A stretch of DNA of 64,000 nt from an uncultured Gammaproteobacteria bacterium (GCA_964594455.1 CAZQLY010000005.1:1682-65681); one strand, 5' to 3'. Positions 3,444 to 57,168 are shown, counted from the stretch's first letter. Notes: generated by a model from the letters alone, not told the origin. Made by a program: numbers and translations.

Positions 3444-4727
<1,284 letters not shown>

Positions 4728-17254: not shown

Positions 17255-17370
17255 ATTACTTTTTTTTTAGTTGTCTTCAATGCTGCCGGACTAGGATTCG
17301 AACCTAGATTACCAGGGCCAGCCCGCCCCGCCAGCTTCGCTAATTATAAGTTTTATATTCTCAAGTAGAT

Positions 17371-17443
17371 TGCTCCGGGGCCTGGACTCGAACCAGGATT
17401 ACCAGGGCCAGAACCTAGCGTCCTACCATTAGACGACCCCGGA
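17371..17443 (-). tRNA. tRNA-Gln (anticodon CUG), intact, lying inside the intervening sequence of the outer copy
   Basis: Minus-strand sequence TCCGGGGTCGTCTAATGGTAGGACGCTAGGTTCTGGCCCTGGTAATCCTGGTTCGAGTCCAGGCCCCGGAGCA. 7-bp acceptor stem with U1:A72; D, anticodon (loop TTCTGGC) and T arms all pair. Confidence 0.85.
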
Positions 17444-17513
17444 ACAATTCACTCGAGATATTTTTTAACCTGCAGACGCAGCGGGCCGGGGAACCTGGCG
17501 TCCTACCATTAGA

Positions 17514-17546
17514 CCCGCCTCGACTTGCCGGTCTCGGCGAGGCGGG
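17514..17546 (-). repeat. GC-rich hairpin element (CCCGCCTCG-N15-CGAGGCGGG) inserted in the D-stem of the outer tRNA-Gln copy
   Basis: Perfect 9-bp inverted repeat. Same family as 40578-40648, 56798-56829 and degenerate copies at 32676-32700 and 34933-34959. Confidence 0.7.
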
Positions 17547-17570
17547 CGATCCGGCAGCAATGCAGGCAAC

Positions 17571-32779: not shown

Positions 32780-34702
32780 TTACTTTTTAGGATCTTCTAC
32801 TTCGCCTTCGACCGGGCCTTCATCCTTTTTGTCCTTTTTTTCATCCTTCGATGGCTCAGCTGGACCGGCTCCTGGCGGAGGTGGAGTTTGACCGGGTTGG
32901 CCCTGCTGGCCATACATAGCTTGACCGATCTTCTGAGCGGCCTGGCTCAATTCTTCCGTGGCCTTCTTGATTGCTGCCAAGTCACTGCCGTCTTTCACCT
33001 TTTTCAGGGCTTCAACTTTTGTTTCTATTTCTTTCTTGTCATTATCCTTGATCTTGTCTTTGGCATCTTTGACCGCTTTTTCTGCAGTGTATATTAACGT
33101 ATCAGCCATGTTTCGAGCATCAATCATTTCTTTTTTCTTCTTATCCTCGTCAGCATGAGCTTCAGCGTCTTTTTTCATCTTTTCTACTTCATCTTCTGAC
33201 AAGCTAGTTGAGGCTTGGATAGTGATATTCTGTGACTTACCGGTAGCTTTATCTTTGGCTGTTACTTTCAGGATACCATTGGCGTCAATGTCAAAGGTTA
33301 CTTCGATCTGCGGTACGCCTCTGGGTGCTGGCGGTATGCCATCCAGGATGAACCGGCCTAGGGTTTTATTGTCACTGGCCATTTCGCGCTCACCCTGCAA
33401 TACGTGAATTTCAACTGTGGACTGACTGTCAGCAGCAGTTGAGAATACCTGACTCTTGGAGGTCGGGATAGTGGTGTTGCGTTCAATTAATGGCGTACGC
33501 ACTCCACCCAGAGTCTCTAATCCAAATGTCAGCGGCGTGACATCTAACAGCAATACATCTTTGACATCACCCTGTAATACACCAGCTTGAACAGCCGCGC
33601 CAATGGCTACAACTTCATCCGGATTAACGCCTAAGTGAGGCTTCTTGCCAAAGAATTTTTCAACTGTTGACTGAACCAGAGGCATTCTAGTTTGTCCGCC
33701 AACTAAGATCACTTCCTCAATATCTTCCGGCTTCATCTTGGCATCATTCAAAGCTTTTTTGACCGGATCCAGAGTAGCTTCAACCAAATCACCTACTAGT
33801 TCTTCCAGCTTGGCTCGAGACATCTTTAAGACCAAATGTTTTGGTCCGGAAGCGTCCTGGGTGATAAACGGCTGGTTTATCTCAGTCTCAGAAGAGGTTG
33901 AGAGCTCAGTTTTGGCCTTCTCAGCCGCTTCTTTCAGCCGCTGGAGGGCTAATTGGTCATTGGACAGATCTATGCCCTGATCCTTCTTAAATTCCTCAAT
34001 TATCCAATCGATTATCTTCTTATCAAAGTCATCACCTCCCAAGTGTGTATCGCCGTTGGTTGATTTCACTTCCACGGTATCTTCAGAAACATCCAAAATA
34101 GAAATGTCAAAAGTACCGCCCCCCAAGTCGTAGACTGCGATCTGTTGACCTTTCTTTTTTTCAAAACCATAGGCCAAGGCGGCGGCGGTCGGCTCGTTGA
34201 TAATGCGTTTGACGTTCAAGCCGGCGATCTTACCCGCGTCCTTGGTGGCTTGACGCTGGGAATCATCGAAATAAGCCGGAACAGTAATAACTACGTCCTC
34301 AATCTTTTCGCCCAGCTTCTCTTCAGCATCCGCCTTTAGCTTCTGCAAAATCATGGCTGAGACTTCCTGCGGCGTATGGTCTTTGCCATTCATGGCCACA
34401 GCTACGCCTTCGCCTGATTGTTTAATCTTGTAGGGTAACGTTTTTACGTCTTGTTGAACTTCTTCATCCTCAAACCGGCGTCCGATCAAACGCTTAATTG
34501 AAAAGATGGTGTTCTCCGGATTGGTTACGGCTTGGCGCTTGGCTGTCGTACCGACCAGTCGTTCACCGCTTTTGGAAATAGCTACTACAGAAGGGGTGGT
34601 TCTAGCACCTTCCTTGTTTTCTAATACTTTAGGCTTTCCCCCTTCTATCACTGCCATAGCGGAGTTAGTCGTACCCAAATCAATTCCTAAAATTTTCGGC
34701 AT
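32780..34702 (-). CDS. dnaK: Chaperone DnaK (Hsp70)
   Basis: [34 protein letters not shown], and an EEVD-like acidic C-terminus. Confidence 0.95.
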
Positions 34703-34715
34703 TTTTTATTCTCCT

Positions 34716-34898
34716 TAATTTATCTAATTTACTTTTTATAATTTGGATTCTTGCGCCAGTGGCCGGCTATCTTCTGACCTTTTCTTATGTAGGCTCCGAC
34801 CCAGTATTTCTTGCGCGTGCCGGCTGCTGGCGATTTATGGACATCTGACTTGGAATACTTGCGGCCAGTCGCCCTTTCTTTTTTCCAAATTCCAAGTG
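34716..34898 (-). CDS. Small basic protein (60 aa), unannotated in the ORF track
   Basis: ATG preceded by the strong SD AGGGGGAAAGT. Translates to MKKSLGIWKKERATGRKYSKSDVHKSPAAGTRKKYWVGAYIRKGQKIAGHWRKNPNYKK. Lies between hsp20 and dnaK on the same strand. Confidence 0.35.
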
Positions 34899-34932: not shown

Positions 34933-34959
34933 TCAACCCATGCCCCGCCTCGATTCAGA
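34933..34959. repeat. GC hairpin family member (CCCCGCCT-N12-AGGCGGG) between hsp20 and the small ORF
   Basis: 7-bp GC arms identical to the tRNA-associated hairpin arms. Conspicuously GC-rich against AT-rich surroundings. Confidence 0.4.
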
Positions 34960-34981
34960 TCAAGGCGGGAATATTGACCGA

Positions 34982-35416
34982 TTATTTCTTCTGGGCTTTT
35001 GATTTTACCTGGACCTTGATGCTCTTAGGTTTTACGCGCTCTTCTTTCGGCACCGTGATCTTCAGGACGCCATTTTCAAATACTGCTTGCGCCTTATCAC
35101 CTTTTACCGAAGTAGGCAGAGCTATCGCCCGATGAAAAGAACCGGAGCGGATTTCTTTGCGGTAATACTCTTTGTCTTCCACTTCGCTCTTTTTTTCCGA
35201 CTTTCCTTCAATCGTCATAACGTCGTTTTCTATGGAGATATTGACGTCATTGGGATCAACACCCGCTAGGGTGGTTTCAACCACTACGTTGTCTTTGTCT
35301 TGATAAACGTCTATCGCGGGTACAAACCCCCGGCCGGAATTGGGCATGAGTTCTTCCATCATTCTGTCCATATCTTCCCAGGGCTCCATTAATGGTTTCC
35401 ATTTGATCATTCTCAT
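34982..35416 (-). CDS. Hsp20/alpha-crystallin family small heat-shock protein
   Basis: Alpha-crystallin domain pattern (AIDVYQDKDNVVVETTLAGV...GVLKITVPK). Confidence 0.8.
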   Translation of the reverse strand: MRMIKWKPLMEPWEDMDRMMEELMPNSGRGFVPAIDVYQDKDNVVVETTLAGVDPNDVNISIENDVMTIEGKSEKKSEVEDKEYYRKEIRSGSFHRAIALPTSVKGDKAQAVFENGVLKITVPKEERVKPKSIKVQVKSKAQKK

Positions 35417-40443: not shown

Positions 40444-40518
40444 TGGTGACCCCACGGGGAGTCGAACCCCGATTGCCAGGTTGAGAACCTGGTGTCCTAA
40501 CCATTAGACGATGGGGCC
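40444..40518 (-). tRNA. tRNA-Glu (anticodon CUC), intact
   Basis: Minus-strand GGCCCCATCGTCTAATGGTTAGGACACCAGGTTCTCAACCTGGCAATCGGGGTTCGACTCCCCGTGGGGTCACCA. All stems pair and CCA is encoded. Confidence 0.85.
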
Positions 40519-40569
40519 ATGATTAGGGCTTTAATATTCTCTATATCTTTGTGTTTCTAAATCCAAGCG

Positions 40570-40666
40570 TGTCCTAACCCGCCTCGCCCGACTTGCGCGA
40601 GCGAGTCGAGGCGGGCCCAGCCTCGACTTGCCGTCTTGGCGAGGCAGGCCATTAGACGATGGGGCC
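40570..40666 (-). pseudogene. 5' fragment of tRNA-Glu (positions about 1-26), duplicated 51 nt upstream of the intact gene and interrupted in the D-loop by two tandem GC hairpin elements
   Basis: GGCCCCATCGTCTAATGG-[33-nt hairpin][38-nt hairpin]-TTAGGACA, then diverges (CGCTTGG instead of CCAGGTT). Confidence 0.55.
40578..40648 (-). repeat. Two tandem GC hairpin elements (40578-40615: CCCGCCTCG-N20-CGAGGCGGG; 40616-40648: CCTGCCTCG-N15-CGAGGCTGG, a degenerate copy)
   Basis: Same arms and loop core (GACGGCAAGT) as the copies at 17514-17546 and 56798-56829. Confidence 0.65.
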
Positions 40667-40715
40667 ATGAATAACTTGACTCAGTGTATTGTAATTTGGG
40701 CTAAACGTCAATACT

Positions 40716-56683: not shown

Positions 56684-56778
56684 AGCTTTTTTATTATACC
56701 AAAATATTGCCTTTCTTTCAATTATAGGCTCTTGCCAAATAATATTTATTCTGCTAGTATAGGAAAAGTTTCAAACAC

Positions 56779-56838
56779 GCGCCGTTAGCTCAGTTGGCCC
56801 GCCTCGCCGAGACGGCAAGTCGAGGCGGGTAGAGCAGT
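56779..56838 (+). pseudogene. 5' fragment of tRNA-Lys (positions about 1-26), duplicated 254 nt upstream of the intact gene, with a 32-nt GC hairpin inserted in the D-loop after G18G19
   Basis: GCGCCGTTAGCTCAGTTGG-[hairpin]-TAGAGCAGT is identical to 57093-57119 apart from the insert. Similarity also extends about 5 nt upstream (CAACACGC). Confidence 0.55.
56798..56829 (+). repeat. GC hairpin element CCCGCCTCG-CCGAGACGGCAAGT-CGAGGCGGG
   Basis: Perfect 9-bp inverted repeat. Family member. Confidence 0.7.
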
Positions 56839-56844
56839 TATTAA

Positions 56845-57102
56845 ATGATTGCTACTTACATACTGTTTAGCCAAAAAGACAGAAAAACATACGTCGGGTA
56901 TTCTTGTAATTTAACAGATAGGTTAAGAAATCATAGACTGGGACTAGTCTCAGCAACTAGAAATAGACGACCGTTGTCGCTTATAGCTTATCGACCTGCT
57001 AGTAATATCGAAGACGCAAGAAAAATAGAAAAATATTGGAAAACAGCGTCAGGGCGCAGATTCCTTAAAAAAATACTTATAGATATCAACACGCGCCGTT
57101 AG
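56845..57102 (+). CDS. Small GIY-YIG domain nuclease (85 aa, catalytic domain only)
   Basis: TYILFSQKDRKTYVGYSCNLTDRLRNH matches GIY...YIG...R..H. A downstream Glu (IEKYWK) is present. The last four codons and the stop (AAC ACG CGC CGT TAG) are the 5' end of the tRNA-Lys gene. Confidence 0.6.
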   Translation: MIATYILFSQKDRKTYVGYSCNLTDRLRNHRLGLVSATRNRRPLSLIAYRPASNIEDARKIEKYWKTASGRRFLKKILIDINTRR

Positions 57103-57168
57103 CTCAGTTGGTAGAGCAGTGGCCTTTTAAGCCAACGGTCGGGGGTTCGAATCCCTCACGGCGCACCA
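57093..57168 (+). tRNA. tRNA-Lys (anticodon UUU), intact
   Basis: GCGCCGTTAGCTCAGTTGGTAGAGCAGTGGCCTTTTAAGCCAACGGTCGGGGGTTCGAATCCCTCACGGCGCACCA. Cloverleaf pairs and CCA is encoded. Confidence 0.9.

Follow-up and report, generated by a model that had tools for sequence, protein, structure and literature searches.

A hairpin-interrupted tRNA-Glu fragment as a possible footprint of a mobile GIY-YIG cassette

The tRNA-Glu locus described here (positions 40444-40666) lies within a 64-kb stretch of DNA (64,000 nucleotides [nt], referred to as the window), and its features are listed in Table 1 together with those of the other two tRNA loci of the window, tRNA-Gln(CUG) and tRNA-Lys(UUU); all three genes are called by ARAGORN and Rfam. 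The Glu features are on the minus strand, and in the direction of the tRNA they are ordered as a sigma-70-like promoter, a leader ending in TCAT, the first part of a tRNA-Glu 5′ fragment, two GC-rich hairpins, the second part of the fragment, a spacer that also ends in TCAT, and the intact gene. Positions 1-27 of the tRNA are present twice, as are the four leader bases TCAT, and only the downstream copy is called as a tRNA by either program. The hairpins are placed exactly to the 3′ side of the conserved D-loop GG, and the second has the same arms (CCCGCCTCG/CGAGGCGGG) with a longer loop in which GCAAGTCG is retained; the fragment and both hairpins together have a folding energy of -50.7 kcal/mol (z = -3.0). 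A preliminary description of this locus had reported a duplicate of the tRNA-Glu 5′ part upstream of the gene, on the same strand and bearing two tandem hairpins, and this is confirmed by complete identity of the two fragment parts with the gene (18/18 and 9/9 positions). That the fragment then diverges was also seen correctly, although it ends at position 27 rather than about 26, and the spacer is 50 rather than 51 nt in length.

Table 1. Features of the three tRNA loci in the window.
Feature	Position	Strand	Remarks
Glu: sigma-70-like promoter, TTGACG-17-TACACT	40683-40711	minus	Ends 17 nt 5′ of the Glu fragment; kept in naive ortholog L024
Glu: 5′ fragment part 1, tRNA positions 1-18, GGCCCCATCGTCTAATGG	40649-40666	minus	18/18 identity with intact gene
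Glu: GC hairpin 1, CCTGCCTCGCCAAGACGGCAAGTCGAGGCTGG	40617-40648	minus	3 mismatches to the Lys-locus hairpin
Glu: GC hairpin 2, 38 nt, CCCGCCTCGACTCGCTCGCGCAAGTCGGGCGAGGCGGG	40578-40615	minus	A single G separates hairpins 1 and 2
Glu: 5′ fragment part 2, tRNA positions 19-27, TTAGGACAC	40569-40577	minus	9/9 identity with intact gene
Glu: spacer, 50 nt	40519-40568	minus	Between fragment and intact gene
Glu: intact tRNA-Glu(CUC)	40444-40518	minus	ARAGORN and Rfam
Gln: older tRNA-Gln 5′ half, positions 1-10, hairpin (17514-17546), positions 11-33	17491-17556	minus	
Gln: 170-nt insert in old anticodon loop	17321-17490	minus	Holds intact, divergent tRNA-Gln(CUG), 17372-17443
Gln: older tRNA-Gln 3′ half	17281-17320	minus	Downstream of insert
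Lys: promoter-like TTGCCA-17-TAGTAT	56732-56760	plus	5′ of fragment, not before intact gene
Lys: 5′ fragment, positions 1-19, hairpin (56798-56829), positions 20-28	56779-56838	plus	
Lys: GIY-YIG open reading frame, 85 amino acids	56845-57102	plus	Stop TAG (57100-57102) inside tRNA-Lys
Lys: intact tRNA-Lys(UUU)	57093-57168	plus	ARAGORN and Rfam

The hairpins are closely tied to the tRNA genes. The pattern GCCTCG-N8-30-CGAGGC has four matches in the 64 kb, where 0.01 are expected, all four are inside tRNA 5′ fragments, and each of the three tRNA genes in the window has a hairpin-bearing fragment. There is no T-run to the 3′ side of the Glu hairpins and a terminator scan reports none there, so that a role as terminators was rejected. 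As the preliminary description stated, no 3′ fragment lies downstream of tRNA-Glu, and the same holds for tRNA-Lys; since no 3′ counterpart of the Glu fragment is present anywhere in the window, an intron or an archaeal-type split tRNA was also rejected. The Glu locus contains no open reading frame (ORF). With a looser scan a fifth, related hairpin is seen at 34944-34969, with arms CCCGCCT...AGGCGGG and another loop; it is intergenic, lies outside the tRNA fragments and is flanked by minus-strand ORFs, one of which (34982-35416) ends just upstream, while a short ORF starts near 34896 and ends just before ORF 32780-34702.

The Lys locus has the same plan as the Glu locus, with a hairpin of the same family located directly 3′ of the D-loop GG and a fragment end at position 27-28. 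Here the gap between the fragment and the intact gene is 254 nt and is occupied by an 85-codon ORF that matches the GIY-YIG domain (PF01541; Pfam E = 1.8e-11, residues 3-71). This ORF was overlooked in the preliminary description, and is the best clue to the agent at work. The protein retains Y5, Y16, G18, R26, H30 and E62, and may be decaying, since it has other residues at four of ten positions that hardly vary across the family. The ORF overlaps tRNA-Lys by 10 nt, such that its stop codon lies inside the tRNA and processing by RNase P would yield a message with no stop; the exact protein is missing from the protein collection and has apparently never been called as a gene, and no record of the window's DUF134 protein was obtained either.

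The Gln locus is of a different construction. The older tRNA-Gln is complete but doubly split: a hairpin occupies position 10/11, and the anticodon loop holds a 170-nt insert, the boundaries of which are set independently by the old tRNA halves. When the old pieces are joined without both inserts they form a perfect cloverleaf, and a second, intact tRNA-Gln, with an acceptor stem differing from that of the older one, resides within the insert. The claim that one architecture occurs three times in the window thus applies to Glu and Lys, but not to Gln, where a complete older tRNA surrounds a nested second tRNA and its 3′ half lies downstream (17320-17281). The ends of the insert are GC-rich inverted repeats (CCCGGCCCGC...GCGGGGCGGG) in which 9/10 bases are complementary and which are similar to the hairpin arms, and the insert may represent a hairpin-type element with cargo.

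The GAPDH gene adjoining the Glu locus has a graded series of relatives, so the direction of change can be followed. One of them, L024 (GCA_016294925.1), has 86% identity in GAPDH and shares the gene order YibE_F, cupin, DUF134, tRNA-Glu, GAPDH and pilins. In L024 only a 16-nt leader separates the promoter TTGACG-17-TACACT from tRNA-Glu, with neither fragment nor hairpin, and relative to this naive allele the window locus has about 148 nt extra, accounted for by both hairpins, the spacer and the repeated 5′ part. The same promoter and gene order without the insertion indicate that the window fragment occupies the native, promoter-proximal 5′ end of the gene and that the additional ~148 nt are derived. 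The fragment had been described as an extra copy placed upstream, and this view is not sustained, as it is the working gene that is found to the 3′ side of the insertion. The site is polymorphic among relatives, being naive in L024, occupied in the window, and marked by an apparent remnant in L028 (80% identity in GAPDH), where the tRNA-Glu leader contains GGGCGGG followed by a degenerate match to tRNA-Glu positions 17-35 (15/19 bases, equalled in 59/3000 shuffles); this resembles what a similar event would leave after decay. The nearest relative, L030 (89% identity), has a contig that stops 29 nt past the GAPDH gene, beside the orthologous locus. In L025, L026 and L027, strains of one species, tRNA-Glu has no fragment, and a GC hairpin 3′ of GAPDH (~3555-3590; GGCAGGCGAGCC-TTAA-GGCTCGCCTGCC and variants) varies from strain to strain.

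This conserved setting bears on the possibility that the fragments are scars of integrase-mediated integration and excision of an island or prophage, each carrying a displaced attachment-site fragment. Genes for tRNA are classic integration targets, and genomic islands that use tyrosine integrases split tRNA or tmRNA genes, restore the target from the element and leave a displaced fragment behind (PMC4383910). However, the neighbours of all three tRNA loci in the window are housekeeping genes (at Glu those encoding GAPDH, DUF134, the cupin protein and YibE_F), no integrase is present among the neighbouring genes examined at any of them, and the inserts span 50-254 nt rather than kilobases. Furthermore, the displaced pieces are 5′ parts that adjoin the gene, and integrase models do not predict hairpins interrupting the fragment. 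We consider such an origin highly improbable in general, and for the Glu locus it is largely refuted by the 50-nt gap, by housekeeping neighbours ordered as in the naive relative, and by the lack of any integrase or kilobase-scale element there.

The arrangement recurs widely. Patescibacteria have tiny genomes with mostly single-copy tRNA genes, and a search with the Lys nuclease recovered 51 small homologs, nearly all in Patescibacteria assemblies; eight of nine distinct loci inspected abut a tRNA gene. Seven cassettes, from the window and five other Patescibacteria, share a single plan in which a hairpin-interrupted 5′ tRNA fragment is followed after 10-20 nt by the nuclease ATG, the ORF, and, after 0-8 nt or with an overlap, the intact tRNA. 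The seven comprise the Lys cassette of the window, L012 (Tyr), L013 (Ser-GGA), L019 (Ser-GCU), L021 (Ser-UGA), L023a (Ser-UGA) and L023b (Ser-GCU). In L012, L013 and L021, as at the window Gln locus, the fragment differs in sequence from the intact gene, whereas at Glu and Lys the two are identical. L014 is a mirror image, with an intact tRNA-Cys, the nuclease ORF and then a 3′ fragment, and its hairpin takes the place of everything from the anticodon-stem 3′ strand through the variable region to the end of the T-arm 5′ half, the GGTTCG motif included. L009 came to light solely through the hairpin pattern; a tRNA-Leu fragment bearing a reversed window-type hairpin lies there 5′ of tRNA-Leu, and no ORF is present. 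After insertion there is in every case one intact tRNA, and the native promoter is followed by one dead fragment that bears the hairpin or hairpins. The hairpins, one or two per dead fragment, are 5-23 nt from the insert junction and always occupy a former tRNA loop, at 12/13, 13/14, 17/18 or 18-19 in the D-loop, 10/11 in the D-stem, 35/36 in the anticodon loop, or in the T-arm. The suggestion that a recurrent process rather than an accident is responsible is therefore well founded, with all three tRNA genes of the window, L009, L012, L013, L019, L021, L023 and the mirror-image L014 affected, and L024 providing the naive allele. This breadth also bears on the possibility of an artefact of metagenome assembly: the window apparently comes from a metagenomic assembly and the contig of its relative L030 stops close to the locus, but assemblers collapse repeats and do not make hairpin-interrupted partial copies, and the same plan is present in more than eight independent assemblies from different projects and at different tRNAs, leaving such an origin barely credible.

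Two of these loci are informative about how cassettes change with time. In L023 a remnant 5′ of cassette a aligns to both cassette ends with an internal deletion of about 250 nt, from which it follows that ORF-less derivatives consisting of a hairpin, a ~45-nt spacer and a tRNA do arise, and this points to two successive invasions of one tRNA gene. The remnant itself (L023 4919-5000) is a degenerate hairpin with a ~45-nt spacer, 5′ of the intact cassette at the same tRNA-Ser(UGA). In L013 the 3′ end of the old tRNA is 560 nt downstream, beyond a glyoxalase gene, showing that cassettes can carry a whole tRNA and cargo. A GC-rich structured stretch (L013 10357-10932) to the 3′ side of the new tRNA-Ser includes GCCTCGCCGA, as in the window hairpin, and the glyoxalase-family gene between this stretch and the old tRNA 3′ end is a possible cargo.

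The nuclease family consists of the bare catalytic domain, and the closest solved structure is the single-domain UPF0213 protein in PDB entry 1ZG2. The best 150 family members are mostly 80-125 amino acids in length, and no DNA-binding domain is present beyond the catalytic domain in the 85-amino-acid window protein, in which the Pfam match covers residues 3-71. Matches of the N-terminal part to group I intron endonucleases are weak, and the window nuclease matches no PHROG family. A HMMER scan identified 7,827 cluster representatives at E <= 1e-10. Many members carry false N- or C-terminal extensions that are translations of a tRNA T-arm (RFES, WFES, VRIP, GSNP, GSIP) or of the first hairpin (PKAG, PARGW), from which it follows that adjacency to tRNA is widespread in the family. 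Two members, P0172 and P0173, are called as tandem double GIY-YIG proteins with the T-arm-encoded RFESLHPS before each domain, which suggests tandem tRNA-nuclease repeats like the amplifications driven by SegB (see below).

We favour the interpretation that the Glu locus is an ORF-less footprint of the insertion of a mobile GIY-YIG cassette that targets Patescibacteria tRNA genes, and give this a probability of about 0.58. It is favoured by the derived state of the locus relative to L024, the nuclease ORF at the Lys locus, the recurrence of the plan and of the hairpin module, the ORF-less derivatives in other genomes, the foreign tRNA copy at the window Gln locus, the breadth of the family, and the precedents of SegB and the fungal mobile ORFs (see below). 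In this interpretation Glu is a secondary, ORF-less example of the pattern, and the complete form would be a minimal free-standing nuclease gene of ~85 codons encoding the catalytic domain only. The cassette would enter the 5′ third of a tRNA gene, bringing or regenerating a copy of the leader and 5′ part, so that an intact tRNA is rebuilt downstream and the original promoter-proximal 5′ end remains as a dead fragment. By analogy with known systems the nuclease would cut tRNA genes, with repair from the cassette-bearing allele resulting in homing or in a SegB-like break-induced duplication; alternatively, break-induced recombination between short tRNA homologies could copy the ORF and the adjacent tRNA part. 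Transcription of the intact tRNA would begin at the old promoter and read across the fragment and hairpins. The hairpins themselves could break up what remains in the dead copy of the nuclease target or of repeat homology, or else give stability to the nuclease mRNA at its 5′ end. At Glu the ORF would since have been lost.

Several observations weigh against this interpretation, the first group of which concerns the Glu locus itself. No GIY-YIG remnant was detected in the Glu spacer with a hidden Markov model (HMM) of 52 family members, which scores below 0 in all frames, and the spacer has no nucleotide similarity to the Lys cassette (461/500 shuffles score equally well); in the Gln spacer too, the family HMM and nucleotide alignment detect no remnant. 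A resemblance to GIY-YIG proteins seen by eye in the Glu and Gln spacers (GPLRLQVKKYLE*) was dropped, with the HMM below 0 in all frames and alignment to the Lys cassette no better than that of shuffled sequences. The 3′ 31 nt of the Glu spacer are weakly similar to the native DNA 5′ of the fragment (39/2000 shuffles and 17/2000 random window segments do as well), and this may reflect a duplicated unit reaching to about -50 or a plain local duplication of the locus. The likeness fits a local tandem duplication and a decayed cassette equally, and is the chief weakness of the cassette interpretation at Glu. At both Glu and Lys the fragment is 100% identical to the intact gene, with lineage-specific bases (e.g. 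C6) common to both, and there is no sign of a foreign origin. Secondly, a catalytic-domain-only protein of 85 amino acids has no obvious route to site-specific recognition, and the intact tRNA retains any target that lies within the tRNA, so that the immunity of an invaded allele is not accounted for. Thirdly, the nuclease-ORF loci were found by searching with the nuclease and are a biased sample, one family member (L015) lies in an operon with no tRNA, and window-type hairpins occur at non-tRNA sites with no GIY-YIG gene (L004, L005, L001 and L007) and are reversed in L009.

The hairpins of the other cassettes differ from those in the window, and a single hairpin family across the genomes was rejected in favour of different sequence families occupying the same position. 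The insert of five cassettes, drawn from four genomes, consists of a double hairpin of 30 nt in which 60/60 scored positions are paired (12 bp in each of five sequences), and at 4 of the 12 base pairs both partners have changed. On the sense strand the loop sequences are constant, with CAA first and then TCG, CTG or TAG, while the stems trade places between cassettes. A covariance model of this double hairpin matches only six fragments, each 5′ of a nuclease ORF, in 216 kb, and the same CAA/TNG model has no match in the window. Neither hairpin type has an Rfam match at the gathering threshold or at E <= 10, and only tRNA matches are obtained at the gathering threshold.

That the loops do not vary, the stems covary and the distance to the ATG is constant fits a role for the hairpins as a 5′ leader of the nuclease mRNA. 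A broader version of this idea, which is compatible with the cassette interpretation, is that the fragment and hairpins are kept by selection as a structured cis-acting 5′ leader, which might for example lend stability, direct processing or act as a small RNA for the tRNA or nuclease transcript downstream. A promoter is found 5′ of the fragment with no convincing one before the intact gene, and the hairpins lie 10-20 nt 5′ of the nuclease start codon in all seven cassettes. But Glu has no ORF to regulate, no Rfam family is matched, window-type hairpins occur in both orientations, the naive ortholog L024 does without the fragment and that of L028 is decaying, and we regard selection of this kind as quite improbable. 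Within the cassette interpretation we favour disruption of leftover target or repeat homology in the dead copy, because the hairpins are strictly placed in conserved tRNA loops, including the replacement of GGTTCG in L014.

Window-type hairpins are also found elsewhere. They are kept nearly base for base in other Patescibacteria (L004/L010, L005/L011, L001/L006 and L007/L008), and in L007 (11498-11522) and L008 (965-989) the hairpin lies in an apparent coding region, just 3′ of a zinc-ribbon-like CKDCF motif, a situation reminiscent of palindromic elements that enter genes without disrupting the reading frame. The window has four copies and one variant in 64 kb, all four in tRNA fragments, and related copies occur at non-tRNA sites elsewhere; an alternative that we hold to be unlikely is that the hairpins came first. 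Autonomous palindromes resembling miniature inverted-repeat transposable elements (MITEs) or repetitive extragenic palindromic (REP) sequences, with arms CCCGCC...GGCGGG, would insert in the loop-coding parts of tRNA genes and persist only at sites at which an intact tRNA is retained thanks to local duplication or another gene copy, with the GIY-YIG ORF a passenger or later colonist. The occurrence of nearly unchanged hairpins at non-tRNA sites and inside a coding region, in either orientation, agrees with this, as do the absence of an ORF at three of four loci with window-type hairpins (Glu, Gln and the L009 Leu locus), the similarity of the Glu spacer to native upstream DNA, and the 170-nt Gln insert with its hairpin-like inverted GC ends and tRNA cargo. 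There is also a mitochondrial analogue in fungi, in that the double-hairpin elements of Allomyces mitochondrial DNA have been regarded as mobile (Paquin 2000, cited by PMC7218506). The Allomyces elements resemble the hairpins described here in being short and GC-rich, with one or two hairpins, in an AT-rich genome and optional between relatives, and the GC clusters of yeast mitochondrial DNA, which are short GC-rich hairpin elements in an AT-rich genome, share these features; however, both reside in a eukaryotic organelle in tens of copies and many contexts, whereas those in the window are few and all in tRNA fragments, and no kinship in sequence is expected. REP sequences, bacterial interspersed mosaic elements and bacterial MITEs are likewise short GC-rich imperfect palindromes recurring across related genomes, but the window hairpins are low in copy number and confined to tRNA fragments, with no GTAG or CGTC tag visible.

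A hairpin-first origin has further difficulties. Because insertion into a single-copy essential tRNA gene would be lethal, each locus must first have been duplicated, and a pair of rare, mutually independent events would be needed at all three loci within 64 kb. None of the four copies (with the variant at 34944-34969 counted separately) is at another intergenic site, and the double-hairpin module of the other genomes is confined to sites 5′ of GIY-YIG ORFs. No clear target-site duplication is seen at the window hairpins, and no transposase is seen among the neighbours of the window loci, although no search was aimed at RAYT or other transposases, genome-wide or otherwise.

A related and equally doubtful possibility is that the GC hairpins and the minimal GIY-YIG protein together constitute a new type of mobile DNA element, in which a structure-specific nuclease acting on hairpin or cruciform DNA inserts the element in tRNA loops. 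The nuclease would target the hairpin module and those parts of tRNA genes that encode loops, and a working tRNA copy would always be brought or rebuilt; the inverted GC ends of the Gln insert would be true termini, and the small hairpins a minimal, cargo-less form.

Returning to the cassette interpretation, the closest analogues are SegB of phages and the mobile ORFs of fungal mitochondria. SegB is about 220 amino acids in length and includes a DNA-binding part. The SegB genes of phages T4 and T6, like the nuclease genes of the cassettes, are free-standing GIY-YIG genes among or beside tRNA genes. The enzyme cuts inside tRNA genes at a conserved T-loop-like motif and is statistically enriched near tRNAs (PMC13096335; PMC2330249), and it drives a segmental duplication that depends on its catalytic residues and on recombination proteins (PMC13096335). 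In contrast to this phage protein, the predicted window protein is an 85-amino-acid catalytic domain encoded in a bacterial chromosome and is closest to UPF0213; moreover, neither the rebuilding of a gene from a partial copy nor GC hairpins in a displaced fragment were seen to be mentioned in PMC2330249 and PMC13096335. In the fungal systems a mobile endonuclease ORF carries along a duplicate of the terminal part of the gene it invades, giving a working hybrid gene and a displaced, dead native fragment, and the insertion point is visible against a naive relative (PMC3630166). These ORFs (LAGLIDADG or GIY-YIG; Allomyces atp6, and Glomus atp6, atp9, cox2 and nad3) have the same hybrid-gene outcome as the window loci, but they are found at the 3′ ends of organellar protein genes, whereas the cassettes are mostly at the 5′ ends of bacterial tRNA genes (3′ in L014); 'hairpin' does not occur in PMC3630166, and the Glu and Lys copies are identical rather than foreign.

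Free-standing GIY-YIG genes at tRNAs, the formation of hybrid genes, and GC hairpin elements in AT-rich genomes are thus all known already, and novelty appears to lie in their combination on a bacterial chromosome, where the nuclease is minimal, the tRNA fragments are 5′ ones and the hairpin module is obligatory; the literature yielded no account of such an arrangement, either from Patescibacteria or from other bacteria, and no paper on GIY-YIG cassettes at tRNA genes of Patescibacteria. A selfish element that lives in essential tRNA genes and does not kill them would have reached a neat solution, and such elements may mark gene flow in an uncultured group. The link to tRNAs and double hairpins gives a testable biology to a large family now annotated only as 'GIY-YIG nuclease family protein', and also affects annotation, since fragments and hairpins are being translated as false N-terminal extensions of called proteins. 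An 85-amino-acid nuclease with a defined DNA context could, if specific, be a minimal targeting system.

Two further arrangements involve partial copies of tRNA genes. In L021 (1540-1860, minus strand), an additional copy of the 3′ end of tRNA-Ser(GCU), again with a terminator, is found about 170 nt downstream of the gene and its terminator; no nuclease gene separates the two parts of this partial duplication. A scan of viral contigs yielded just two distant homologs of the nuclease, one of which has no tRNA; the other, L031 (1440-1820; an IMG/VR contig of 55% GC on which ARAGORN calls no tRNA), lies between two copies of a tRNA 3′ part, and in the pseudo-tRNA on the downstream side the anticodon arm is replaced by TCCGCC-TCA-GGCGGA.

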